This document shows positions 1 through 57,708 of a DNA stretch of 64,000 nucleotides, in pieces (the first letter of the stretch is position 1; every line of letters begins with the position of its first letter). The notes under the pieces were generated by a model. It was given only the letters and a program-made list of their open reading frames with translations. It searched no databases and was not told the origin of the DNA. The stretch lies in IMG/VR virus record IMGVR_UViG_3300045988_056936, positions 1-64,000 of that record. One strand, written 5' to 3'. Made by a program: the position numbers and the translations under genes. The stretch is from a virus.

Positions 1-112
1 AATTAACCTACTAACACCCTTCATTCAACACTACGTTATCTTTTGCCTAGAGGCAAGGATATTACTTAGCAAACTAAAAAAAAATAATAAAATGTTTCTA
101 AATATATAATAA

Positions 113-209
113 CTCGACATTGGAATTGGCATTGCTGACGTCATTGTTAGAATTGAAATAGCTGAGACCCGCATTGCCGCCATTATTCGCGTTGCTGCCT
201 ACTAGCAGT
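113..209 (-). repeat. DGR template repeat (TR). Non-coding copy rich in AAC/AAT codons, lying 75 bp past the tail-fibre stop codon
   Basis: About 97 nt homologous to 314-410 and to 28271-28367. I aligned base by base: about 22 mismatches to VR1 and about 20 to VR2, all at positions where this copy has A on the minus strand (T on plus), none at other bases. Read as peptide it gives ...GSNANNGGNAGLSYFNSNNDVSNANSIVGFR, the AAY-codon pattern typical of DGR templates. Confidence 0.85.
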
Positions 210-283
210 ACTTTTTTGCCAATCAACGGTTTTTAGAAGTAATATCCTACGATTTATCATCTAAATCGATTTTTATATTGTAT

Positions 284-3200
284 ATCTTAAGATACTCTAT
301 TCAGAGTCCTGAACCCGACAATGGAATCGGCACCGCCGACGTCATAGCTAGAATGGAAATAGCCGAGACCCGCATAGCCGCCATTACCCGCGCTGCCGCC
401 CACCAGCAGCGTGCGAAGCGCTGTGCTTCTTGCGTTGCAGTAATGGTAATCGCAAATATAAGTAGTAGCACTTCCTCCAACAGCGGATGGAATTATTTCA
501 GCGGTTTCACCTAAGTCAAATGCCTTAATATAACCATCAGATGCTACTTCGTATCCTGCAACGGTTTTCTCTCCAACTACGTCGGTAAATTCCGATACGT
601 TAGTAGTTGTATAGACAGTGCTAATCTCATTAGCAGCTGCTCTCACTATAACTACTCCGTCCAGGTTAGTCCAAATATCTCCAAATGGATTATCAAAACC
701 TCTCCATCTTGGAACTTTAAATGTCTTAGTCGCTACTGTATCTGTTCCGTTTGTTGCAGTACACTCTGGAATAACTAAATCTTTGATTCCAGTAAAGTTA
801 CCAATATCGTTACAGTAACCACATGGAGTAAGAGGATAGGTTCCATTATATCCAGACCAACTTGTAGCAGAGTTACTCCAGTCTGTAACTCCAGGACCAA
901 GTCCTCCTTGACGATAACCATCAGAAGTAAGCTCGGCATTATATGCAGCCTGAGAGTTAAAGTTAGCATATTCTATTACATAGTTCCAGTAGAATATCCA
1001 TTTATAATATTCATAGCATAATAATTCAGAACCTGCATTTGTAGCATAAGTTCTCATATTAGCTCTAGAAACATTAGTTCTAGGTTTTCCTAAATCGCTT
1101 CTAAAAGCATCTTTGGTCTCAAGTTCAGTAGTTAGATACCCATCGAATTGTGCTCTATTTCCACCACCTCTAAATGCTTCTGTAGTATTGACCACAGACA
1201 CAGCTTTAGGGGTTGCTGACACAGTATTATCAACGGTATTTCTATATGCGTCAATTAATAGTTCTGGTATTTCTATCCATGAATCATCAAGCTTTACTAG
1301 AGAAATTCTAACCCATCTTTTATTTCCATTAGAGCCTGATTTACCATAAAATTTAGGAGTGTGGACTCTTACAGTTCCATCAGTTCCATCGAGCACAGAA
1401 GGAGTACTTCCATCTTCTTTGTAAGCCCAATCATCCGGATATAAATAGTAATTTACCACACCGTTATTTGCTACACATCCTCTGTAAGCGGACTAGATAG
1501 GGAGGGATTTATGTAATAGTGGGTTTCCTATTCTAGTAAGGATAGGAGAAGATACGGTAATATCCCATTCTACTCCATAAGAGTATAAGTCTACGTTACT
1601 GCTTAACTCTGTGACTTGTTTGCTTAGACTCTATTGTTTTTTTTGTAATTCTTCCCAAGCAGTATTAAGAGCATTAAATTGTTTCTCTAACTTAGTACTA
1701 GTATCTGCCCACTATGCAGTCCCATCTTCAGAAAAGGTTAAAATCTATCCAAGTGCTCCTCCAGCAGGTATGTGTTTATTTCCAGAAGTAGTTGGGTGTA
1801 CATAATTATTTGCATTATCTGCAATACCACTAAGTTTCTGTTTTTCAGTTTCTGTGTAATTAGCTTCAGAAAGTCCTTTTCCTAATTCTTTATCTACCTT
1901 ACTTTCCAACTCCGTTTTAGTAGCTAAACCGCTTATATCCTAGTGTTCCTTTAAATAATTTTCATCATTCTATAACTAAGACACTTTAGTTGGAATGGCA
2001 CTAGATTTTGCATATGTCTAATCTATAACATTTCCAGAGCCATCATAGGTAGCCTTTAAGTCATATACGGTTTCTCCAACCTTTATAGATTTGATTGCTG
2101 CCATATCATTGTATTATTAAAGTTTCATCAACTACATCGTGATCTATTCCCTCTATGGAAGCAGTTAGGTCCTCAACAGCCTTCTACAATTCTGCTTTAG
2201 TAGCATAGTTCTTGAGAACTTCCTAGTCTACTCCAGAGCCTCCTCCTATACTTCCTCCAACAACTTTTACTGGTTTGGCAGAACTCTTAAACTGTCCTTC
2301 AATATAAATTGTTCCCATATTGTTTAAAATATTAATTGTTCATTTTCTCCATCTACCTCTACACTAGAACCTGGCTATAAAGCGTCTATCTTTTTCTACA
2401 ATTCGGCTACGGCCTAGCTAATTAGTTCTTCTACCTCAGCTTTGGTGTAGTATCTCTCTATAAGATATTCGCTCCTAACATATCCAGTATCTTGTAAATC
2501 TTTTTCTCCATAGGTGCAATAATAAGTATCTTCTTCAGTCTTACTATTCTCAACTAGGTCATCATAATCAGCTTGTGGTAAGCATACAAGTTTTGGTACT
2601 TCTTCAGTAATAGCAACTTGCTTGCCTCCAGCAAATAGCCTGTTATCTTCTGTGGTAAGTTTAACAGAACTCTCAATAACTTGCTCAGTTCCTGTTTCCT
2701 CAAAAGGTTCTCCAGTTGTTCCCTATTGTACTTCTTTTTCTCCAATTTTCTAAATAGTAATATCAGAAGTTTCTACTGATGTAGATTTCAAAAGCTCAGT
2801 GCTAAATTCTTTAGCAGCAGCAGCCTAATCATCCTGATATTTTTTCTAGGTAACAAATATGAAATCATCATCTCCGGTTTCAGGAGAGTCTCCCCTTAAA
2901 CTTTCTTTTGTTACGTAATCTTCGGCTATCTAATCTGATAAATCAGATAATGACTATTGAGTAGCATAAGTAGACTGAGCATTTTCCTTAGTAAGAAATT
3001 TGTCATCAACCTGCTAAATAGTATAATAAGCCTTAATATCTTCTGTAGTAACGTAGTTTCCAAGTTTTTGCAAACCTTGAACTATTTCATCAATCTACTT
3101 CTTGGAGTAATAATTTGTAGCAACCCAGGACTGATATTGATTGGTAGTATGATAATTCTAATCCAAATATTCCTTAGTAATATAAACCTTTGCATCATTT

Positions 3201-5778
3201 GTGACGTCATATACATAGTAATATGTATCAGGCTCTACCGTCCCTTCCTCTACTAACTTTAGATACTCTTCTTCAGTTAATGTTACTAAGTTCGGAATAT
3301 CCGATTCAGTAGCAATCTAATCTTCACCTATAAATAATCCTTCAGACCTAACGTCTACTACTAGCTAGCTCTCTCCCTCTACTACAGGAGATTTTATCTA
3401 TCCAACAGTGATGCTTTCTAAGGAACCATTCCCATCTACCTTTAAAGTCTTATCTAGCTCATCTTGAATAGCCTATTGGTCTTCGTCATACTATTTCTTT
3501 GTAACAAAGACAAAATCATCTCCTTCCATTCCTTCTCCTCTAAGACTTTCTTTGGTAACAAATATGTCATCAGTTTCTTCCTTAGTATAATGGTTAGATA
3601 AGGCTTTAGATAACAAGGACTCTGGGTCCTCTAAATCTAGATCAGTTTTAGGGGCATAATTCTCAGTTAACTCTTCAAGGGTAGCATACTTGGAAAGGTT
3701 AGAGATTGTCTAGTCTAAATCCGTTCTAATCTGTACGACAGTAGTATTTAGAGCTTTCTATTTCAACTATTCCTCTATCTTTTTACCCCATTCTGCTGAT
3801 AAGTAAAACTAATCATCATCTAGGCTGTCTTCATATATATAATAATATGTTTCTGCATGAAGATATGTTTTATCTTCGTCTATAGGTTTAAAATCTTCTG
3901 TGGTATTTTTAGACCATTCCTTATATTCAGCCTCTGTACAGGTGATTATCTAAATAGATTCATAAGAAGCTTTCCAACCTTCTTTGTATTTAATCTTAGA
4001 CTTATCTACTAGCATATAAATATTTCCGTTATCTATATTTGAAACGGTCATGCCTTGATAAGCATATTTCTCCGGAATAGAATATAATTCGTCTAAATTA
4101 TCGACTACTGTTCTATTATCAAGAGGTTTAGGAGTTTCTACGGTTAAAGCAACACCTAATGTAGCATCACCTGTATATTTAAATGCCATTATTGTGATAA
4201 AGTAAAGTTAATTTGATGAGGCAATGCTGAAGAATAAGTATCCTTCTTAGTCCATACTTTATAAGGAAATCCATTTATCTATTCAGTAGAAGTTTCCCAT
4301 CCACTTAAATCAACATTTAGGTATCCTAGTCCTCCATCTACTGTAAATGAATTTAGCTAAGTATTACTTCCAGGTAATTTTATAATAGCCTTTCCACTTA
4401 ATGAAAATGTAATAATTCCAGAAGATTGTCCAAATGGAACAAGACTCTATTTGATTAAACTATCTGTATTACCAGAATACCAAGGGTAGGTAGCAGTCAC
4501 CTATGCTGTAGTTGATATTGAACCAGCCTCCACCCTCTTGTCTGTAACCTCTCCCTTGTTGTTAATAAGATATTCTCCAGCAGCATAATTTACGGTACCA
4601 GAATGCACATAAACACCGATAGAATCATATGTTTCAGATTCTACAGGAGAATCATTATAGGTAATAGTTTCTTCTCTACCAGTTTCCTCTCCAGCATCAT
4701 TTTTTATAAATGTTAAAGTAGGGGTAAGTAAAGCGGATCCTACCTCCACAATCTAAGAGGTGAAGCTATAATACAACTAAGGATAAACCAAATCTCTAAC
4801 AACAGTAGGAAATAATAGAGTGTCTATAATCTCATTAAACGGCTTTCCTTTCAATTTTTCAACTGTAGTTCCTTGAATAACAGTAGAAGTAGTATCATCT
4901 GGAAGTTCAGTTTGATAAGTAGCTATAGTTTCTAAACTTGTCTATATATTTGTGATATTCTCAGTATTAGAATCTACTTTAGAATCAGTGTTCTTCTAAG
5001 CTTCCTATACTCCCTTAACTTCTTCCTTTACCTCTGTTAGAGATGGTTCCAGGTCTTTTACATATATTCCAGGTAGAACTACTGTGGAAGGTTCTCCTTC
5101 CTCCTCTACTGGAGGAATTTCCTACTGAATCAGATGTATTGCATTATCCTCCTACTAAGATAGAATTACTTCTAGAGTATTATCATCCTTTATTTCTATG
5201 GTTTTGGAGTTTCTTAGACTATTAGTTATCCAATTCTAGATGTTTTTGTCAACATCTATATTTTTGATAGACTCATTAATATCCTCTATTGCCTCATTAA
5301 TCTAGGTTATTTTCTCAGAAAGATTGTTTATGCCAGTTCTGTTAGATTCAATTTCTTCTTCAAGTTCTTCCTTAAGTACAGTAATAGAAGTTCTGATATT
5401 ACTTATATCAACTTTTATTTCCTCTATTTCTTCTGTATTAGCTTCGTACTAACTTATAAAGAATAAAGCATAATCTAAGGCATCTTTTACAGTATTGATA
5501 TTCTCTGCAACATCACTAGTATAAGTCCATTTCTATTCTATGTACTATACTAAATCTTTCTAGGCTTCTATAGTTCCTTCTATATTTCCCCAAAGAAGAC
5601 TCTACTCATCAGCGATACCTAGATTCTTTCTAACCTTAGCTCTTTCTAATTCAGTTCTATATTCTCCAAGATAGTTGTTTCTTAGGAGAGGTATAGGTTC
5701 ACTTTTTATTAAATGTCCTTTCTTTCCACAAGGCTTTATATCAGCATTGCTTACCGAAGTATAAATAGGCTGTATCAT
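284..5778 (-). CDS. Tail fibre / receptor-binding protein, possibly more than one gene, TAG-recoded, with the DGR variable region at the C-terminus. The 5' boundary is uncertain (candidate ATG at 5776-5778)
   Basis: ORF-track fragment 287..1459. My manual translation upstream continues in frame through TAG codons at 1493, 1631, 1712 and 1745 with no TAA or TGA. It yields ...YTETEKQKLSGIADNANNYVHPTTSGNKHIPAGGALG(Q)ILTF..., a phage tail-fibre-like motif. The C-terminus carries VR1. Confidence 0.45.
314..410 (-). repeat. DGR variable repeat VR1 at the extreme 3' end of the tail-fibre gene. GC-rich island
   Basis: Differs from TR only at TR adenines. Encodes ...LVGGSAGNGGYAGLGYFHSSYDVGGADSIVGFRTLN, then RVS and a TAA stop at 284-286. 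Its GC content stands out in an AT-rich genome. Confidence 0.85.
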
Positions 5779-5779
5779 T

Positions 5780-8700
5780 ATGATTCAATAATTGCTATTT
5801 AATAAATTCGTGATTATCTAATTTTACGGGTAGGTTAATAAAACAAATTAGATTCAAAATATCCTAATAATCTGGTCTATATCCCTTTCTAACCCTTTTA
5901 AGGAAATCCTCATACCTTTTAATAGCCTTTCTTTTAAGAGCATCCACAACCTATACGTTTATGTTCATGGTGATTGTCACAGAATCCACCGCAAGTGCGG
6001 AACATTGCTAACAATCTTTCAGCTTCCATGAATTGTTTAAAGCCTATTAAATAATCTATAATGTTAAGTGTCATCCAGATAAAATCTCTTGCAAATATAT
6101 CTGCATCATGTTCTCTAGTTAGACACTTATTTAATAAAGAGTCAAAGAGTTTCTTACAGTAGTTAATATAACACTATTGCAGATTTCCTGTAAAGAATAC
6201 ATCTACCTTACATTTTTTGATAGTAGTTCCTTCTATATTTCTCTCAAGGATTTCTTTTACAGTACATTCCTCTAGCTCTCCATCTACTTCTTTATATAGT
6301 TTCTCTCCATCAGTTATATAGATAGTTTCATAATACTCCTTGTATTCATCAGATGAATTTTCATACCATTTCATATTAGGAAGAATTATGTGGTCTACTA
6401 CATAATATCCATCTTCTTTCACCTTAAATGTACAAGAGTCTAAATCCTCTGTATGGTCATTGAGAAGTACGTCTATCAAAGTAGCATCTCCTATACTAAC
6501 TTTTATGATAGTATTTAGGGTAGCACTTTCACTATACTTATAAGAATCATAGGAAGTTACTACCTCTAAATCTTCATCAATATACTATCCATATTCCTTT
6601 GAAAAGTCTTCAATAGTTATTTCCCCGTTAATCTGGGTATGTATATCAATACTAAATTCCATATTATAATAATTAAGACTCAGTAGTAGGCCATTGACCA
6701 TATTGAGCAGGAGTAGAAAATGGTTTCCACTTACCTTCTTGTCGTATACGTCTAGACATAAAAACTGAACTAAATGATAAACTAATATCTTGAGGATAGT
6801 CTGTCCATGTATATGACTAACCTTCAGGAGTCGGTGGTAGACTATTTAATTTACCAGCTGGTTTCCCATTCCAATAATAATTATAGTCATATGCCTTAGT
6901 TGGAGTAACAGTCGTTGTTTCATGTCCTTCTAAATCTACATATAGAGGATTTCCATCCTCATCTGTTTTCTGCTTATACTCAATAACTGGAGTTATTCCC
7001 TCAGTTCTAGTGTATATATTCTAGATAATAGTAGAAACATCGCTTGCCACAATCTCATAAATAGTAGTTCCCTGAGATTCGTCAGCTCCCTAGAAAGTAA
7101 ATTTAGTTCTTTTCCAGATGTATGGATTCTCTTCAGTTGGAAGTTCAAAAGTATCAGTCCACTATTTAGTAGATAATTTTATCTCAGATTCTTCAGCAGT
7201 ATCAGCAGGTAAGTAATGAATCTTAATAATAATATTATTTACCGCTTCACTAGAACCAGAAAGATCTGACACCTATTTAAATAGTTTCTTTAAATCTTCT
7301 TCCACATTTGATTTGGAACCAGAAGCATTACTAATAATTACTGAACCATCTGAAATAGGATAAATCTATTGCTAATCCTTATTATATACAATTGTTCCAG
7401 TTGCCATATTAATGTATTTGTCTTATTTTGTCATTATATGGATTTCCATCATGAAGCTAAGCTAACTCTATTTCAGTTCTCTTTTCTTCTATATCCATTT
7501 GTCTATCTTTATATGTAGAATCAGATTGAGCTTTGAGCCAGTTAACTTTATATTCTAACTACATTTTCTGCTACTCTAATCCTAATCTCTATTCATCCAA
7601 ACTTTCTATCTTCTACTAAGCTTTCTATAGTTCTTGCTGTAACTGCTGTGCCTATTGTGAAGTTTCTTCCAGTTTTTCCTATAGCTGCTATAGCTAATTG
7701 TTTTCTTCTTTACGAATCTATACTGCTTTCTTAACCTTATATTTAAGGTCTGTAAGACTCTTAGCAGTTAGTGCTTCAAATATGATGTCAGGATCCATTT
7801 GCTGACTTTTAACAAACTCTGGAATAATAGCTTTAATAGTTTGTAAATCTTCCATTACTTCAGAGCTAGAAGTTATATGGATGTCATAATCAGTAACCGT
7901 AAAATACTCTGGAAGCGCTGTAAATATCTGCTAGTATTTATCTCCAAGTATAATAGTACCAGTCAATCCTTTCTTATATGTTATTTTAGCCTAGTTTAGA
8001 CTATCCAATAATATCTCACAAGTGATTAGGTCCATCTACTAGAAATAATGCTTGGTTACTATGTAAGAGTTAGTAACACCTTGCTTAATATTAGTTACAG
8101 CATCGTGAGTTTCTATTCCATTTAATCTTTCTCTAAATACTCCAGTTATAGATGATGTAGTTTGTTCTACTGATTGAATTGCTAATTCAATAGCCTATAC
8201 AGCCTAAGCTTTTAAGGTATCATCAAATCCATTGTATATCTAGTTAGGTGCTTGCGCTCCATCATTTCTTCCCTCCTAAGTGGAATCAATCCACATGATA
8301 CCACCCTTCTTGTATGCTAACCATTTCTACACTCTTTCTGGCCATTTTACGCCTAGGTTAGTAGGAAGCAATGACATATCCATGATTACTCCAGCAGTAC
8401 CGCTGTTAGCTATCAGGTTGTCCCTATAATAATTTAACAAGTCATATCTATCCTGTAGATGTGCACACTTTAATATCAGAGAGTACGGTTGTTGGGAACG
8501 ATTTAAGAAATATACCCCATTCACAGACAAAGAGCAGAAATTAGGATTATCTTTCGACCTCATAACAGTCTTGTCTAGACCTCTCAGAATATATATTTCT
8601 TCTCCAATTCTAATGGTATTGTATCTCTACATTACAAAATCGTCATCAGTTTCTATCCACTCTACATCATAAACAGGAATTAACTAAAATCTATGAGCAC

Positions 8701-9480
8701 TATATTCATTATCTGGATATCCAGGAATAGTTTCATGATTCTAATCTTCGTTTACTATAGTACAAGTGTCACCATAAACTCTTCTATAAACTGCAGCTGA
8801 ATCATCAGCTCTCCATTCATCTTTTAGTCTTTTCAAATCTTCTCTAGAGATTTCTTTTCCGTATTTAGCTAATATCTAGCTTTTACTCATCCATTTTCTA
8901 ACCACAACTCTATACGAATTTCTAACATATGGAGATTCTGGATTCCTATCTACGAAAGTATTTAAAGGATTCAGAACTTCTATTTCTATGTTAGTTCCAG
9001 AAGATGATGATTTTACTCTGAAAAATGTATAGCCAGTAATTAATAAATCTGTAAGTAACTATCGGAGTTTAGTTATTAAATCGGTTTCTCTAGACTGCAT
9101 AATATAATGAATAATATTCTATGCAGCTATCTCATATTGAGAAATAAAAGACTAATCAATGTCTTGAATAATTTTATCTAACTAAGTCTTCACGGCTTTA
9201 TCTGTAATATCTTTTCCGTCGATAAATTTCAGAATAGAATTACTTAAATGGTCTCTAAGAAATTTAACTATTCCTTTAGTTATTTCTAACTATTTTTCTC
9301 TAGTGATATTACTAATGGTATCTGAATCCTTACAAGAAATCTTCGGAAGGATAGGGGTTCCTAGATATTCTCCTACTAGAGCATCTACATGCTTTTTTAG
9401 TAATGGTGTAAATTCTACAGAAGTAGGACTACCTATTCCGAAGTTTTCTTCCAGGTAACGAAACTATTCTGGGTCTCTCT
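5780..9480 (-). CDS. Block of TAG-recoded virion/morphogenesis genes, not individually delimited. The ORF track is fragmented here because amber codons are sense codons
   Basis: All six frames lack long ORFs although the region is clearly coding: codon-like composition, minus-strand ORF fragments 6174..6479 and 8327..8563, and frequent CTA triplets on plus, which are TAG on minus. Confidence 0.3.
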
Positions 9481-9777
9481 TTCCGTTATAGTAATTATAG
9501 GCTTTCTATAATTCGTATTTATCATATACAAGCTCCGCAATAGCCTCGTTCGTCTTGTCTATCAGTTCTTTTTCTTTCATAACATAAATTATGCTGTTCT
9601 GGAGGAAGTTTAGTTGCATTATAGTATTTAACTCTTTGTAACTTCCTACTTCTTAATTCTTCCTTTATAAATGGGAGAAATTCTTCATCAGGTAAATCAG
9701 CTATAATGACTAAAGGCATCTCTGACCTATCAAAGTTAAACGATACCTTATAACCAACTGGATCTAGGTTCTGAATT

Positions 9778-12138
9778 TCAAGCCCACCTACGTATTCCAT
9801 TTTGTACAAGTCTCTCATATAACCTAGGATCACTTGTTTCAATTCTGTATGGGTCATCGTATTCATTTTTTTGTATGTTAGTTTCAAAAGTCTTAGAAGT
9901 TGGTATAACCCCAAATCTTTTGATTCCTCTCTCGTCGTAATAATAACCATAATCTTGGAATTGTTCAACTTCTTTTTCAACAAGCACTGGCTATCTTCCT
10001 GACAATTCCTAGTCTGCCAATTCTGTCATTCCCACAGCTGCTACAATATCGAATTTACCTTTATTCTCATCATTATATCCAGTAAATTGGTCTAACATTT
10101 CTTCAAACCATATAGTATGACAGAAATCCTCAATAAAGGCTGCTGTCAAATCAGTATGTTGTTCTATAATAGTTTTGGTAGCGGGTGTTCCGTACTATTT
10201 AGTAGTTCCATTCTTGACGTCTGTTAGAGTAGCTCTAGGTCTTTTCATAAAGTAGTTTAAACAACCCTTTTCTCTAGCCCAGGTAATCATACCTACACGG
10301 GTAGCTTCTATGTTTATTCTACAATTATAGTATCTAGCTAAACACATAGCTATTTTATAGGCTTCTCTAATGTCATTAGGTCTGTCTTTATACATAGCAA
10401 CATACTACGGTTCGTTTAGACCAAATGCTCTTCTTTTTATAGTTATACAGAAATCAGAAGGATCTCTTGTTTCTTTTGAAGTTTGACTAGCTCCTATATC
10501 AATACCGTCTATTCCTGCAACATATAAATCATGCATTTCTTTGTACGCTGGAGATTCAAATTCTTCTCCCCTTTCCTCGGCTTCCTATCTAAGTTTATCC
10601 ATCTACTCTTTATACAAATCAGACCATACAGGATGTTCAAGTATTTTTACTTTTCCGTTAATATTAGGAATCCATTTAAAACCATCTATATTATCCTAGG
10701 TGTGTTTATTATTTTTATAGAAATAGTCTATGTATCCAGATTCTGGTCTTGGTCCTATTTTCTTAAGTCTTATATTAGCTAACTGGTCCGCAATAAGAAT
10801 CTTGTTGAACTTGTTAACACCTTCAAGATTAAATGCTTCTTCTGCATTCCAACATCGTTCAGCACACTTCTTTAGATAGTCATCTGGAACTGCTAATAAA
10901 TTGTCGCGCTCTTCCTATAGATACTTCTTATATTCTACTGTATTACATACACCTCTATGGTCCATGTATTCTGAATTTAGAGACTAGACAAAATATGGAA
11001 TGAAGAACCCACTTTCAATAGTAGTCCCATCCTGGGTATAATTATGTCTAAATGGAAGAACTTTGTAAGCTTTTGGATTATAATATATCTTCTTAAGACC
11101 TGCTAATGGAGCGCCCATATCACCACCAGTACCTCCAAATAACATTGTTCCACGAGGTTTACCTTGAACTTCACAAAGCTCTTGTCCCTACACTACAGCA
11201 GTATCTAGTCCAGGCCAAGATCCTGCTTCATCATATATTAATAAGTCAACACGGTCTCCACGAATATTAGATGCCTTAGCTCCGTTTATTCCAACTACTT
11301 CCGATTTAAATCCAACATCCTCAAACTGTCCGTTTACCTTAATCTGTTTACCGGACTTCTTTCTTAAGTCTTGGTCAATCAAACGTAGTTTGAAGAATCC
11401 TCCTCCTGTACAAGTATTCAAGAATGTTAAAGCATTATCAAACTTACTAAAAGTACCTTTAAGGAAGGTATCATTAAAACAGGTAATCATTACTCTGCTT
11501 CTTCTGATTACTGAATACATTCTTGCAGATAAGGATGCATTTATTTCAGAGAATCCAATAGAACGAGCTTTCATAAGAGCTGCGTGTTTATGCAGAACTC
11601 TAGCCATCTATAGATAATGAAAGAACATATAATGAGATGCGAAAAATATAGGAAAGTCACTACTTGTTCCTTCTCCAGATGCCTTGTTATCATCAATAAT
11701 AGGAAGCTAGTAGAAGTTTAGGAAGAAATAGTTATCTCCAGTAATTGTATAACCATTAACAGTCATTCCATATTTACATCTTCTATACTATTCCTTCCAA
11801 AACTCATTATATCTCTTACTATCTTTTAGATATGGACAATACTTTCCAGTTTTTCTATATACTTCTCTGGTCTCAGTAAACCAATCTGGGTCGAAATCAA
11901 GACCATGTGTTTCATCTATTGGTCTATATCCAGTTATTTCATAAGATAAAGTAGGGTCAAATACCTCTATCTTATCTCCTCTTTTTACATCCCAATAATC
12001 AGCATTTTTGCCTCTTTCCTCTCTTATCTTCTATACTAGTTCTCTAGCTTCTTTGGCATCCTCTTTTTGTTCTTTCTCTCTTACCTAATCTACTATATTC
12101 TAGATTTCTTCAGGTAATATTTTTTTCTTTCTAGGCAT
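9778..12138 (-). CDS. terL: Terminase large subunit (TAG-recoded)
   Basis: ORF fragments 11188..11607 (..LIYDEAG.. Walker-B-like terminase ATPase motif), 10195..10395 and 9778..9987 share one frame. ATG at 12138-12136 and TGA at 9778-9780. In-frame TAGs link the fragments. Confidence 0.55.
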
Positions 12139-13520
12139 AATTAAAAGTCTCCTGGGTCAAAGCCGTCTGTAGCTCCACCTCTTACAGTAGATTGTTCTGT
12201 AAGCTCTTTCTTAACCTGCTCTTCTAGTGTTACTAATTCTTCATGAACTTTATGAAGAGTAGCCATTTCTTTCATTACCTTTTCAGCTTGAAAGACGGGT
12301 TTGCCATTATTATCACGTTCATTTAAATCTACTATAGTATCAAAATAATCAATAAACTAGTCAGCTGCTCTTTTAGCTGCTTCTAGAAGTTTTATTGATT
12401 TGTTAGAATCCTACAATGCTCGGTATTTTCTACAGGCTTCCCTGAATAACGGGTCATTAAATTCGGATTCAGATAGTCCAGAGTCACTAATAGCTTCATC
12501 ATGTCTTTCATGTTCTGAATATTGGCTATAGGGACTCTTCCAATCAATAGCTAGATAAATGTAAGATAATTCTCTAGTTACTCGTTCCTTGTCAACAGAT
12601 TTATCCCTCTGTATCAAAGCCTTAAACTCTTTAACTAGAAGAAGCTCTGGTTCATTTATTTCTAACTATTTAGTTAAAGTGTTATAATTAAATACATTCA
12701 TACTCATCAATCATTAACATTAACATCTTTAATCTTTTTATTTCATTTTAGAACCGCATTTACTTACTTTCATTTTAGAACCACAAGCATCTTTCTTAGC
12801 ATACTTTGTTCTATCTGGAACCCATTTTCCATTTTTAAAGTTTCCCTTGTGTCCTCTATTTGCCATGACCTCCTAGTCATTATATTTATTAATAGATACA
12901 GAATCTCTGGATGCTTCATCCTTTGCAGATTTCATATCCTTTTTATACTAAGCTCTTCCAGCCTTGAACTTGTCAACTTCATTAGCTTTCTTAGTAACCT
13001 TAGTTCCTTTCTATGCTTTTTGGCAAGCTTTGCAGATTCTTCCTCCCTGTTTAAAATAAACAAGTTCCTCTCCTTCTGGGCATACTCCTTTTAATTTTTT
13101 ATAGTATTCTAGTTTAGCTCCAAGTCTAGCCATAACTCCGCCTTGCATCTTCTACATAAATTCTTGATACTTGGCTTTGATTCCATCTTCTCCAAGCTAC
13201 TCAGCGTAAGCCTATAAATCTTGCTCTGATTGTAGTTGTATCCCTTGTGCTTGGGCATCTTGTATCAAGTATGCCATGAATGCTTTCTGTAATTCTTCCT
13301 AATTAGCCATTACTCTTCTACTTTAATTAAATCCTTTGTATTAAATACTGCTTCCTGCATTAATCCAGAATCAGTAAACCATCTACATCTTAGTCCTCGT
13401 AATCCTTGGTTATCTTTAAATAAAGCTGCTTCTCTTCTTAGAACAAGCATAACTGGAGAGTGCATTACTTTACACTACCGTAAAGTAACACAATCCCCAG
13501 GCTTAAAATAAACTTTTTCA

Positions 13521-16350: not shown

Positions 16351-17504
16351 ATTATACTTTGTATCATAAGTACAAGTGATTCTATTTATACCATCCTCCC
16401 ACCAAGGTTTATCTGATGGCTATCTAATACCACTTGGGATGGTTATTGTAGGAGTAGAAGTTTCTACTATAGCATCTACTATTTTAAATAATGTATCCAA
16501 GTCAAATTCTGGAAATTCATTATGTAAGTTTGTCAATGTCTTTTTAAAGTCTATCATATCCCTCAAATGTATTATCAATTATTGCTTTTTCTAGTGTAGT
16601 GTCTTTATATAGTCCATTTTTAATTAGATTTCTAACTGAATTGTCAACTACATTCCATATATCAATCAGTAATGATTTATTCTCCGGAACACTTCTAAGT
16701 GTACTTTCTAAATATCCGGCTTTTATCATATTTATTAGTTGACCGTTAATAAAGACTTCAAATTTAAATTCTTTATCCATATATTTTAGTATATTACACT
16801 TAGTCTATTTAATTCATCTAGGTAATCTAGAAACCATTGTTCATTTTGTTTTCCTTCTTCTGCAACAATCTCAATTAAAGATTCTGCTGCTAGGAGTATA
16901 GTTTCAGATAACTCTTTTAAATTTGGCTTAGTTAGTTCATTGTATTTATCAGTCAAGTTTAACATAATCCATCCAGTCTTTTATATATGATTTACATTCC
17001 TCTAAATCTGGATAGATACTTGCTATAGTGCAACCTGTTTTTGGATTCCTAAAATGATGGAGTTTTGCTTCCTCATTTTTCTCCTCTTCTATATTTCTAT
17101 TTAATGTTCTATTCCAGTAGTTGTATTTCTCATCTAGCATTTCCTTATCACACTCCTCCAATATTTTCATATTGGGATTACTCATTATTTTGTCATACTT
17201 TCTTTTTAAATTAGAAACTTTGACAACATCATTACCATTCAATACGACTGCACACTGTTTCATTTCACTACTTTATAAGTACATATCTTACCTATCTGCT
17301 TTCCTTGAATACTTATTTGTGGAAGAAAGTAGCAGGCTTGATTCTCAAATTCTTGAGGTACAAATATGTAATCAAATCTACATCCAACTACCTTATCGCA
17401 AACTTTATTCCAATCATCTCCCTCTTCAATAATAAGGGTCTTAGCTCCTGTTGGAGTTACAGCATAATTCTCATTTAAATTTATCATAACTATTAATTTT
17501 GGCG

Positions 17505-17576
17505 TTGCCCTACTAGGATTCGAACCCAGACTAAATGATTTAGAGTCATCTGTGCTGACCATTACACCATAGGGCA
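17505..17576 (-). tRNA. Amber-suppressor tRNA, anticodon CUA, tRNA-Gln-derived
   Basis: Manual cloverleaf: acceptor TGCCCTA/TAGGGCA (U1-A72) with discriminator A; D-arm GGTGTAATGGTC; anticodon stem GATGA/TCATT with loop CTCTAAA (U33, CUA, A37); T-arm CTGGG-TTCGAAT-CCTAG. The D-arm and acceptor are near-identical to tRNA-Gln(UUG) at 32536. It sits at the 5' head of the TAG-rich minus-strand block. Confidence 0.8.
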
Positions 17577-19975: not shown

Positions 19976-20045
19976 TCCCCATTAGTATAATGCATTGCGC
20001 CTTCCTCTAAAGAAGGAGATTCTGGTTCAAACCCGGAGTGGGGAA
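19976..20045 (+). tRNA. Second CUA-anticodon (amber-suppressor) tRNA, Gln-like acceptor, atypical 3-bp D-stem
   Basis: Acceptor TCCCCAT/GTGGGGA (U1-A72, U7·G66) with discriminator A; anticodon stem CCTTC/GAAGG with loop CTCTAAA (CUA); T-arm TCTGG-TTCAAAC-CCGGA. The D-arm is weak (GTA/TGC). Confidence 0.45.
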
Positions 20046-20851
20046 CTTAGTATTTGAGGACTACAGCTACTTGTAGGCTCTATTTGCTGTTAAGGACTAT
20101 AATGGGTACGCCCAGAGACTATGTAATTGTTGTGAAACAATTCAAAGGAGAGTGGCACAGGAAGGTCTTTTGATAGTGTTCATTTTTTATCCCAACAGCG
20201 GTGGGGATATTTTTAAAACTCAGCCTAGGAGAGTATAAAATACCATCTGATGAGACTAGGACGAAATATACTTTGTATATAATGGTATAACTAATTAAAA
20301 CTAAGAAGATGAAAAAGAGATATATTATTCCAGAGGAACTGCATTTTGCTTCTGCTAGCTGTGGATTTGAATGTAATAATTATGACGAGGTATTAGCGTT
20401 TGCTGGATATTTTCTATCTATCGGGTGTTCCTTTGAGGTTTCGGATCTCTATATCGAACCAAAGGGGAATTTAATTCCTTTAAAACAGTCGAACGAAGAA
20501 AGGGATGTATGGGAATATCTCATGCTAGAGTTTTAATAACTAAAACATAAATATTATGAGCAAATTGACAAAAAAGAAAACAGAAACTCTCTATGCCAAA
20601 ATGGTAAGAGAAGAAAAAGCTATGCAAATTGCTGCTCAATATGGTCTTCAATATGAAGTACTTCAGTCTATTAAGGCTGGATGTACTCCAGAAGAAGCCT
20701 TACGTGAATGGGATTTAGTATAGCTTTCTTTAAAAAACTTAATAACTTTCCAAGTCATTGAGGACACCAGTTTCTTATATGTTACGCATGAGAGGTCGAA
20801 CATACTCCTTGCGATATAAGTTTTAGGTGTAAAATGCAATACTAGTTATAT

Positions 20852-34515: not shown

Positions 34516-34746
34516 CAACTTTTATTCGATTATAGATTATGAAAGAGTTAAGTGAAATTATCCAAGAATTGGTAGACAGTAGCAATTCCATGAATCAAAT
34601 TGATTCAAAAACTGCTATACAGTATGTTGTGGAGGCTTACGAAGCTGGAATGGATAAGGCTAAAGAACTTATCAAAGACAGTGGAGAACTTTAATTAACT
34701 GAATGTTCTGAAACATTCATATTAAATAACAATTAAAAATAAAGAA

Positions 34747-35931
34747 ATGAACAAGGTTTGGATGTGTTCCGGGTCTACATACACCCAAGTAGGCTCAGGT
34801 TACAAGATTTCGGAATCTCTTCCGGTTGGTATTTACAGTATTAGTCTGACAATGACAGGTTATCACCTGGATAAGTATGCAGACAAGTTCGTATTTCCGT
34901 ACAAGATGTATGGACTGCAGGAAGATTTCATAGACTATGTAATCAAAACTTATAGTAACACGGAAGGAAACTTGGGAATCATGCTTACTGGTACAAAAGG
35001 TACTGGAAAGACTGTCACAGCTAAAGAATTAGCTAACAAATTGAACCTTCCTGTTATTATAGTAAAGGATATGGGAGACCATAATCAATCTATGATTGAG
35101 TTTCTCTCTGGCATTGAGGGAGACTGTGTTCTCTTCCTAGACGAGTTTGAAAAGAACTTCAGCGAGTCGGATTCTACAATCCTCCAAATTATGGATGGAG
35201 TTTATAACTCTAAGTATCGTAAGGTATTCTTGTTGACTACTAATGCAATGTCTATCAACGAGAATATGGTAGGACGTCCGTCTAGAATCCGCTACGTCAA
35301 GAAGTTTGAAAATCTTGATTTGAAGGTTGTAAACGAATATCTAGACGATGCCTTGGAAGTTCCAGAAGCACGTCAAGATTTGCTTGACTTCATTGATTCT
35401 TTGACCATATCAACTATTGATATTCTCAAAACTATAGTTAATGAAGTTAACATTCATGGAATTGAAGGTTTGAGAAAGGCTAAGAGTTTCTTCAATGTAG
35501 TAACTAATGAGTATGAGTATTCCTGTATCAGAGGTTATGCTTACACTGGAGAAATTGAGCAAGACAAGAATAAGTTCTCTATTGAGAACTTCTCCAAGGC
35601 TGTTGAGAGATTTAATAATCCTATACCTAAGCCTATTGTTAACGATGAGGATAACTGTACTATGGAGGAAAGAAAAGCTCTCAACGAATACTATGAGTAT
35701 CGTCGCCATAACTTCCACAACCTGTCGTATTACTTTATCTACTCTTCTACCAAGTTCAGCAATCTTAAGGTGGGAGACGGCTTCTACAGTGACGAGATTA
35801 TCGCTATTGACAAGAAGTTGAATGTTATTGTTACTAAGAACGGTAACGAAATTAACTACTACTGGATTAAAGATCCTAACAGTAAGCCATCTCTGTATCG
35901 TACAGGAAGATACGATTCTTTGGTACTCTAA
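34747..35931 (+). CDS. AAA+ ATPase, function unknown
   Basis: Walker A GTKGTGKT, Walker B VLFLDEFEK, sensor ..LLTTNA... Confidence 0.5.
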   Translation: MNKVWMCSGSTYTQVGSGYKISESLPVGIYSISLTMTGYHLDKYADKFVFPYKMYGLQEDFIDYVIKTYSNTEGNLGIMLTGTKGTGKTVTAKELANKLNLPVIIVKDMGDHNQSMIEFLSGIEGDCVLFLDEFEKNFSESDSTILQIMDGVYNSKYRKVFLLTTNAMSINENMVGRPSRIRYVKKFENLDLKVVNEYLDDALEVPEARQDLLDFIDSLTISTIDILKTIVNEVNIHGIEGLRKAKSFFNVVTNEYEYSCIRGYAYTGEIEQDKNKFSIENFSKAVERFNNPIPKPIVNDEDNCTMEERKALNEYYEYRRHNFHNLSYYFIYSSTKFSNLKVGDGFYSDEIIAIDKKLNVIVTKNGNEINYYWIKDPNSKPSLYRTGRYDSLVL

Positions 35932-56506: not shown

Positions 56507-56933
56507 TCATCCTTTTGGGAAAGAAGCTTGCAAGAAACGACTATTAGAAGAGTATCATAAATACGGAAAGCTAATAGTCGCTTTCGATTTTGATAATACT
56601 ATTTTCGATTACCATAATACTGGCGGAGATTATAGTTGCGTTATAGAACTACTTAAAGAATGCTCACTTCTAGGTTTTGAAATGATTTTATTCACCACTG
56701 ATGAAGATGATTATAAAATTATGGCAAAGCAGACAATTTGTATGCGATTAGGAATAGCAAATATTACTTCTAATACTTTATCTGCTCCAAACATTAGTAG
56801 TTCTATATTCTCTAAATCTAAGAAACCTTATTACAATATCCTCCTAGATGATAGGGCAGGTCTGGAAGAAAGTTATGAAATCTTAAAATATGTAGTAGAT
56901 GAAATTAAACTTAATCAACAAGGAAATCAGTGA
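56469..56933 (+). CDS. HAD-superfamily hydrolase-like protein
   Basis: ..VAFDFDNTIFD.. (HAD motif I, DxDxT). Confidence 0.4.
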   Translation: MKKSDKELTMDFNHPFGKEACKKRLLEEYHKYGKLIVAFDFDNTIFDYHNTGGDYSCVIELLKECSLLGFEMILFTTDEDDYKIMAKQTICMRLGIANITSNTLSAPNISSSIFSKSKKPYYNILLDDRAGLEESYEILKYVVDEIKLNQQGNQ

Positions 56934-57708
56934 AATTAAGTACGATGTTACTAGATTTCCTGATGGAGAGCCTCAGTTTTTCCTTACTGAGGAATTAAAC
57001 AGAAAGGAATCTATTGATGTCATTTGTAGAATATCTAATACTGAGGATTTATTCCTCTTAGTGCAAGTAGGAGATATTTTAGATAGACAAGAAGTAGAAT
57101 GGGATTTACACATTACTTATTTAATGTCTATGCGTATGGATAGAGTAATGAGTTTTAATCGTCCATTCTCCTTGAAAGTAGTATGTAATATGTTAAATAG
57201 CTTAGGCTATAGAAACATATATGTTCTTGAGGCACATTCTAGTAGAACTTTTCATCTTCTTGGTGACAGATGTTTACCTTGGGAATTTGGACACCACTCT
57301 TGGATTCCAGCCCAAAGTAATATCGTGTTCCCAGACCATGGGGCGAAGGACAGATATGGAAGTAACTATTCTCACTATGGTTATTTAGTCTTCAAAAAGG
57401 AAAGAAATCTAGAGACTGGAAGAATTGAGTCCTTTGAAATAGAGGAGTCTAAGAATTGCTACTATTCTACATTTGTGTTCATTGATGACTTGTGTGATGC
57501 CGGAGGAACTTTCCTAGGAGAGCTTAAGGTTCTCAAAGAGAGATATCCAAATAGCAAGTTTATCATAATCGTATGTCACGCAGTTAATGATAAAGGTCTG
57601 ATTAATATGTGTAATAATTTTGACCAGGTTATTGTATCTAATTCTCATAGGGATATTAATTATCGTCCCAGCAACGAGAACTTAACTGTAATAGACGTTT
57701 GTAAATAA
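56899..57708 (+). CDS. Ribose-phosphate pyrophosphokinase (PRPP synthetase) family protein. Candidate ADPR-pyrophosphate synthetase (Adps) partner of the NAMPT-like enzyme
   Basis: N-terminal ..FPDGEPQFFL.. and ..ITYLMSMRMDR.. (Prs FSDGE / PYxxYARQDR). PRPP-binding loop ..FVFIDDLCDAGGTF... Confidence 0.65.
   Translation: MKLNLINKEISEIKYDVTRFPDGEPQFFLTEELNRKESIDVICRISNTEDLFLLVQVGDILDRQEVEWDLHITYLMSMRMDRVMSFNRPFSLKVVCNMLNSLGYRNIYVLEAHSSRTFHLLGDRCLPWEFGHHSWIPAQSNIVFPDHGAKDRYGSNYSHYGYLVFKKERNLETGRIESFEIEESKNCYYSTFVFIDDLCDAGGTFLGELKVLKERYPNSKFIIIVCHAVNDKGLINMCNNFDQVIVSNSHRDINYRPSNENLTVIDVCK

Follow-up and report, generated by a model that had tools for sequence, protein, structure and literature searches.

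The DNA analysed here (the window) is a 64,000-nt stretch of a viral record in IMG/VR (IMGVR_UViG_3300045988_056936). It begins inside a diversity-generating retroelement (DGR). On the minus strand, a tail-protein gene carrying a variable repeat (VR1) is followed, after a gap of 102 nt from VR1, by a template repeat (TR), a 141-nt spacer and a reverse transcriptase (RT) gene that starts outside the window. The features are listed below. Conservation was judged in alignment A2, built from the TR and flanking DNA of 48 distinct sequences, the window among them; the RTs of these relatives are 70–99% identical.

1–42, minus strand: first part of the distal TR–RT spacer, AAAAGATAACGTAGTGTTGAATGAAGGGTGTTAGTAGGTTAATT, nearly invariant in A2 and cut by the window edge.
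43–56, minus strand: stem-loop TTGCC-TCTA-GGCAA, then unpaired adenosines, from RNAalifold.
56–67, minus strand: downstream arm of a long-range helix, AAGTAATATCCT, a perfect 12-nt inverted repeat with 237–248.
68–110, minus strand: A/U-rich linker from the TR to the downstream arm, variable in length and sequence among relatives.
111–209, minus strand: TR, from the repeat search and the adenine mismatch pattern against VR1.
237–248, minus strand: upstream arm of the long-range helix, AGGATATTACTT, from the inverted repeat, RNAalifold and covariation.
287–2104, minus strand: target gene 1, whose 605-aa product matches PHROG phrog_5302 'tail protein' (E=1e-85).
312–410, minus strand: VR1, at the 3' end of the tail-protein gene, with adenine-site mismatches.
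17504–17576, minus strand: tRNA(CTA), an amber suppressor (ARAGORN).
19976–20046, plus strand: a second tRNA(CTA) (ARAGORN).
27926–28486, plus strand: target gene 2, in the early region, encoding a 186-aa protein of unknown function (phrog_11581).
28271–28368, plus strand: VR2, another target of the TR, remote from it (~28 kb) and on the opposite strand.

The repeat search returned a 98-nt direct repeat with an offset of 201 and 83% identity (111–208 against 312–409). When TR and VR1 are read on the minus strand, all 17 mismatches fall on TR adenines (A to G 13 times, A to T three times and A to C once). Adenines account for 28 of the 98 TR bases; by our own arithmetic, the chance of an all-adenine pattern is ~(28/98)^17, or ~6e-10. 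One further A-site mismatch, at 209/410, extends the repeats to 209 and 410. The first-pass annotation had placed the TR on the minus strand at 113–209. The strand and the upper bound are right and the lower bound is 111; its count of 112 bp remaining after the TR becomes ~110 nt. Differences confined to TR adenines are the defining signature of a DGR TR/VR pair. Plain duplication as the source of the repeat was rejected because the mismatches sit only at TR adenines. The pair at the window start are real DGR repeats.

Among 68 relatives, 29 different TR sequences were seen, and no two VR1s were alike (68 sequences); nearly all the differences were at TR adenines. The TR of the source genome has, on the minus strand, G at window positions 170 and 178; the base is A in every close relative. 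Two adenines have thus been lost from the window TR compared with relatives. An exact search for this TR variant found it neither in JGI metagenome contigs nor in GTDB genomes. Adenine-specific changes were also seen in the TRs of relatives, in the 5' part for L022 and in the 3' part for L096, with some in L072. Now and then, part of the TR itself seems to be overwritten by mutagenised cDNA or by VR sequence. Separately, a hairpin (TTCAG-GACT-CTGAA, 290–311, minus strand) begins right where VR1/TR homology stops. Bordetella phage BPP-1 has a hairpin/cruciform at the corresponding position, which is needed for target recognition. There is no equally clear hairpin after VR2.

Target gene 1 is open only with TAG readthrough and contains eight in-frame TAG codons. 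VR1 ends 24 nt from its stop codon. Translated with TAG as Q, the tail protein is identical to protein entry P0154, which lies on the 191,730-bp source contig; the 390-aa fragment that translation table 11 gives for this target has no entry. Scanning the window with the TR while ignoring adenine positions revealed VR2. It matches the TR at 67 of 70 non-adenine positions; the mismatches are 21 at adenine sites and three at the edges. In 32 relatives VR2 occurred as 31 distinct sequences, variable at 29 of the 30 TR adenine columns. Target gene 2 has no in-frame TAG, its exact protein is present on the source contig, and VR2 sits in the C-terminal third of the 186-aa product. In DGRs the VR typically sits at the 3' terminus of the ORF that is targeted, most often within a C-type lectin fold; the target proteins gave no Pfam match. 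Since VR2 matches the TR and is hypervariable, one TR serves two targets. Judged from these sequences, a single TR would diversify two proteins encoded 28 kb apart on opposite strands.

No RT lies in the window, as the first-pass annotation had said. A tblastn search with the family RT in all six frames found none (best E=0.05 over 20 aa). The same annotation reported no YxDD in any ORF. It is correct that no gene has RT motifs; two YxDD-like strings do occur, in long ORFs that were rejected as RTs. The ORF at 34726–35931 encodes an AAA ATPase and that at 56887–57708 a phosphoribosyltransferase. A small-ORF match to Pfam RNase_H/RVT_3 was set aside as well, being an RNase H domain and not a polymerase.

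The RT had been predicted at or beyond position 1 on the minus strand, and inspection of the preceding contig had been proposed. We did this on the source contig (ENA ERZ28595537, LIJU14-1_SAMEA2338727_METAG-scaffold_15, 191,730 bp). The contig is identical to window 17926–38486 at 20,561 of 20,561 bases (fetched stretch L133). Positions 1–6104 of a further stretch, L163, are the reverse complement of window 1–6104 with 0 mismatches. The RT ORF could be read directly, adjoining the TR. Its CDS occupies L163 6136–7410 (record 165,530–166,804, minus strand of the window). The gene starts with a TTG 32 nt past window position 1 and 141 nt after the TR; past position 1, the remaining 31 nt of the distal spacer are followed by this codon. 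It encodes 424 aa and ends in TAA. The motifs are IGNYLSQ (IGNYLSqFF; GxxxSQ type) and YADD. IGNYLSQ is a DGR hallmark motif; RTs of the DGR clade carry (I/L/V)GxxxSQ and YxDD. There are four in-frame TAG codons, at 127, 158, 188 and 252, and codon 188 is the Q of IGNYLSQ; the suggestion that the gene might be TAG-recoded was therefore right. The RT is missing from the window because its start codon comes 32 nt after the edge. It is present in the genome, and its absence from the window results merely from the cut position.

Relatives show the same arrangement. An exact 51-mer (window 20–70) retrieved 16 IMG/VR contigs of 96–192 kb, which are 85–98% identical to the window. Wherever their DNA reaches past the edge, there is a minus-strand ORF with RT motifs, and every inspected relative has the RT at the same place. 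The contigs reached through RT cluster members P0126 and P0148 and through the conserved 98-aa protein (9525–9818) were likewise relatives, none identical to the window. The genes downstream of the RT vary. Some relatives have a 117-aa and a 73-aa gene and then a gene for a 2169-aa protein; in other relatives and on the source contig, a 121-aa gene precedes one for an 888-aa protein with a faint Metallophos match. The regions with differing genes are L163 7355–7720 and 7768 onward, and L017 11238–11809. Contigs of the family often start or end 100–500 nt upstream of the RT, in or near the TR/VR repeat (L024, L027, L028, L033, L035, L049, L056, L061, L070, L079 and L085). Assemblies seem to break at this repeat.

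The identity of the RT is clear from several searches. It matched Pfam RVT_1 (E=1.6e-17) and PHROG phrog_1423 'Reverse transcriptase' (E=1e-110). The best PDB sequence match was 8ub7_A (E=3e-44), in which query residues 43–329 cover nearly the whole 328-aa chain. We used an AlphaFold2 model of P0001, a homologue 99% identical to the L011 query RT (mean pLDDT 76.5). Its top Foldseek match was again 8ub7_A, 'DGR ribonucleoprotein reverse transcriptase', with a TM of 0.81 and 33% identity. Residues ~330–424 (~95 aa) are a C-terminal extension, conserved in the family, that has no counterpart in 8ub7_A. The P0001 model predicts three beta strands, a helix and a fourth short strand for this part. 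The C-terminal domain was found across thousands of gut-phage RTs. Because of the extension, the RT is slightly larger than the 300–400 aa that had been predicted. The family comprises at least ~8000 proteins at E<=1e-10 and 462 IMG/VR loci. Among 68 RT genes, 26 have 1–10 in-frame TAG codons and none ends in TAG; the TAG columns align mostly with Gln. The nearest annotated relatives are Crassvirales RTs (56–58% identity).

The start codon deserves comment. On the source contig a six-codon uORF (L163 6118–6138, 18 to 34 nt beyond window position 1; ATG AAA TAT ATA AAA AAT TGA, encoding MKYIKN) has a TGA that overlaps the RT TTG. A_AAA_AAT is a -1 slippery pattern. Translation might begin at the ATG 18 nt upstream and enter the RT frame by a -1 slip or by termination–reinitiation at TTGA. 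Where relatives have a run of seven A, this ATG shares the RT frame, and gene callers then predict an RT of 430 aa (P0001). Against this, close relatives have A-runs of 5, 6 or 7 nt, and distant relatives are without any ATG, yet keep TTG AAA (A/C)G(T/A/G). The sequence just before the TTG is non-coding, since it carries frame-breaking length changes. The TTG was kept in 69 of 69 distinct upstream sequences. Because the A-run varies and distant relatives lack the ATG, the TTG is the only family-wide start, and we consider initiation at the upstream ATG unlikely.

[quoted passage not shown] Within it, the first-pass annotation had recognised a hairpin at 44–57; the hairpin exists, and its coordinates are 43–56. 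It has a stem of 4–5 bp and a 4-nt loop. In the 48 sequences of A2 the stem is invariant and the loop varies (TCTA, TCTT, ACTT or CCTT); the A-run after the hairpin, GGCAAAAG, is invariant. The hairpin of CrAssphage LMMB is a compensatory variant, TTACC-TCTT-GGTAA. Downstream of the hairpin, the series AAAAGAYAACGTAGT...GGGTGTTAGTAGG...CTCGAA...GCTTCC is nearly invariant even at 70% RT identity. The TR–RT spacer as a whole is far more conserved than the adjoining coding sequence.

RNAalifold, given no hint, closed the TR into a loop with a 12-bp helix (248–237/67–56) and placed the 43–56 hairpin directly 3' of it. When this structure of helix and hairpin was laid on A2, 99.9% of cells were paired. 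Compensatory double changes were found at 6 of the 12 helix pairs (67 cells), and the helix score was reached by 0 of 500 shuffles. As a control, we slid the partners by 1–3 columns; only 33–57% were then paired. Many helix variants are G–U pairs, which pair only in minus-strand RNA. Folding of the window RNA alone did not recover the long-range helix (z-score 0.56, unremarkable). Support for the helix is comparative only, because single-sequence folding misses it. Just upstream of the upstream arm there is another hairpin (252–272, minus strand; CGATTTA-GATGA-TAAATCG), with compensatory changes in L034 (CAGTTTA / TAAACTG). This hairpin may terminate transcription of the tail-protein gene, or it may belong to the TR RNA.

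The linker at 68–110 differs from its surroundings in being variable, with the exception of TTATTATATATTT, which is directly 3' of the TR and invariant. By analogy with BPP-1, the linker may hold the primer strand. A template:primer duplex, sought by eye on A2, had no register consistent across relatives. A second stem of the Rfam RT-17 motif (around GGGTG / CGCTT), sought in the same way, also had no consistent register.

The spacer resembles known RNA motifs. Weinberg et al. 2017 (PMC5737381) proposed that RT motifs of this kind have a role in DGRs, like that of RT-10 in BPP-1. Rfam sets gathering scores of 40.4 bits for RT-17 (RF03020) and 41.3 bits for RT-18 (RF03021). Window 1–60 matched RT-17 at 20.8 bits, which is sub-threshold, with the 3' end of the match cut by the window edge. 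The full-length match, at L163 6045–6133, scored 28.7 bits, again sub-threshold, and ends 2 nt before the TTG. The score for RT-18 was also sub-threshold (23.9 bits). The Crassvirales phage cr7_1 reached 38.6 bits with RT-17, likewise sub-threshold, and none of 11 relatives tested passed the RT-17 threshold. Like RT-17, the element here adjoins an RT gene directly upstream. It also shares with the RT-17 consensus a first hairpin (uuGCC-uCaU-GGCaA), an A-rich stretch, a UGGUAG...CGAA core and an A-rich end. Unlike the element here, the Rfam model has no long-range helix across the TR.

Bases 1–120 might alternatively be only the 5' UTR of the RT gene, a promoter or a terminator, with the 43–56 hairpin acting as a terminator or translation signal. 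The region is indeed directly upstream of the RT start. A consensus scan calls plus-strand 41–58 terminator-like and gives several sigma-70-like matches on the plus strand. Conversely, on the coding minus strand the hairpin precedes AAAAG and there is no U-run, and there is no plus-strand gene for a plus-strand terminator to serve. The adjoining helix pairs across the TR, covaries and includes G–U pairs possible only in the minus-strand RNA. The succession of duplex, stem-loop and adenosines is the layout solved for BPP-1, and conservation of the spacer far exceeds that of neighbouring coding sequence. We therefore regard a purely regulatory role as improbable. Bases 1–120 most plausibly constitute a conserved RNA element, the 3' flank of the TR, and not an empty gap.

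That the DGR is a relic, with its RT lost or inactivated and its TR/VR differences recording past activity, is hardly credible: the window holds no RT and the G at 170 and 178 of the TR can be read as decay, but an intact 424-aa ORF with all RT motifs begins 32 nt past the edge, no relative has lost the RT, VR1 and VR2 of the source genome differ from those of every fetched relative, and the exact VR1-bearing and VR2 proteins are each found on only five contigs of the public collection.

The phage that carries this DGR is recoded. Reading through TAG lifts long-ORF coverage of the window from 43% to 75%. In-frame TAG codons are dense in the minus-strand structural genes (287–13322), and there are nearly none in the plus-strand early genes. 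ARAGORN found 27 tRNA genes in the window, two of them with anticodon CTA. The observation on the distribution of tRNAs and TAG codons covers 17504–17576 (minus), 19976–20046 (plus) and 25035–48406. On sequence grounds, tRNA(CTA) should be needed to read the RT and tail-protein genes. A nucleotide search of INPHARED phages with window 1–6000 found no match. The portal gave weak tblastn matches at ~21% identity, with Flavobacterium phage FpV4 among the matches listed; the organism tally for the portal also includes Cellulophaga, Kehishuvirus, Kolpuevirus, IAS and Azobacteroides records. Between a 786-aa gene and the portal gene, a 98-aa protein (9525–9818, minus strand) occurs exactly in 6061 public assembly blocks. 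This marks the phage family as an extremely common one among sequenced samples. The two ends of contig _050009 share ~96 nt, suggesting a genome that is circular or terminally redundant.

Taken together, it is very probable that the window begins in a canonical, active DGR of a ~190-kb TAG-recoded gut phage, whose RT lies just past the edge. The mechanism is inferred to be that of BPP-1 because the same RNA parts occur in the same order. By this analogy, one transcript would span the TR and its flanks. The helix, stem-loop and adenosines beside the TR, with the distal spacer, would wrap the RT and position the template:primer duplex. The cDNA would be self-primed from the spacer; its synthesis would run across the TR, misincorporating at adenines, as far as the helix and stop there. 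The product would then replace VR1 and VR2. With TAG at codons 127, 158, 188 and 252, production of full-length RT would depend on suppression and occur only after the phage tRNA(CTA) suppressors act. If so, mutagenesis should follow the late, recoded phase of infection and would be tied to it.

A more specific proposal is that the DGR is independent of Avd. The C-terminal domain of the RT would grip the flanking RNA in place of Avd, the RNA scaffold that in BPP-1 is called the 'cPRT Stop' would be kept, and production would be gated by a TAG=Gln switch. The gating is suggested because four TAG codons, one of them at the glutamine of the SQ motif, interrupt the RT gene. At E<=1, neither the RT C-terminus nor the neighbouring genes (70, 117, 73 and 171 aa) gave an Avd match (Pfam PF05635-like), and none of 65 small ORFs of the window was Avd-like at E<=0.01. 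An accessory protein, Avd or HRDC, is common in DGRs and not universal. We hold this proposal to be possible, though on balance doubtful, and offer it tentatively beside the BPP-1-like mechanism.

The BPP-1-like DGR described here is of interest for three reasons. A scaffold of duplex, stem-loop and adenosines is conserved, with covariation, in very abundant and apparently Avd-less gut-phage DGRs. Such conservation makes it possible to ask, in a natural comparison, which parts of the RNA require Avd. An RT in need of amber suppression would tie hypermutation to the recoded late phase. Finally, one TR appears to serve two targets, the tail protein and the small protein of unknown function from the early region.

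A close point of comparison is the cryo-EM ribonucleoprotein of BPP-1 (bRT–Avd–RNA, PDB 8ub7–8ubf; Handa et al., bioRxiv 10.1101/2023.10.23.563531). There, a segment upstream of the TR and spacer nucleotides 59–70 form an 11-bp duplex. The 'cPRT Stop' consists of this flanking duplex, a stem-loop and adenosines that make A-minor contacts. Similar duplexes were predicted in 207 Avd-containing DGRs; 47 of the 207 have an adjacent stem-loop, nearly all of them then followed by adenosines (bioRxiv 10.1101/2023.10.23.563531).

The element here shares much with that of BPP-1. The RT is homologous across the whole of bRT (E=3e-44; 33% identity; TM 0.81). There is a TR/VR pair with adenine-specific changes and a TR–RT spacer of ~140 nt. 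The upstream and spacer sequences form a duplex (12 bp here and 11 bp in BPP-1), and a short stem-loop with a tetraloop and unpaired adenosines are present. The TR flanks thus match the 'cPRT Stop' architecture in anatomy; the stop function and the A-minor contacts are putative. The two systems also differ. Unlike in BPP-1, no avd was detected between VR and TR or elsewhere in the regions searched, and there is no stem-loop of the Avd-binding type directly after the TR. The upstream arm is non-coding here, whereas it lies inside avd in BPP-1. The RT has a conserved C-terminal extension of ~95 aa that bRT is without, its gene is TAG-recoded, and there are two targets. Because BPP-1 needs Avd and none was found here, the ribonucleoprotein must differ at least in that respect.

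Close parallels also exist with DGRs of crAss-like phages (cr7_1/Burzaovirus, LMMB/Carjivirus and Zeta). These have the order tail (fibre) protein, VR, TR and RT, with no Avd between. For the Zeta crAss-like phages, PMC12386605 reports DGRs that lack Avd and amber codons inside the RT genes of seven Zeta phages; in genome size, many tRNAs and a suppressor tRNA(CTA), the phage here is like them. A second, remote VR in a small early-region protein, as found here, has no mention in the available part of PMC12386605. The crAss-like RTs are of similar length (~400–430 aa), contain GxxxSQ and are 56–58% identical over 93–94% of their length, a match that covers most of the C-terminal extension. In the Crassvirales cr7_1 and LMMB, long-range arms, a hairpin and an RT-17-like spacer occur in the same layout. 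The arms themselves differ in sequence from those of the window, being AGGTTACTATTC / GAATAGCGACCT in cr7_1 and GGTTATATTTC / GAAGTATAACC in CrAssphage LMMB. By these comparisons, the DGR here is an ordinary member of the known crAss-type DGRs, in a phage whose portal appears distantly Crassvirales-like.
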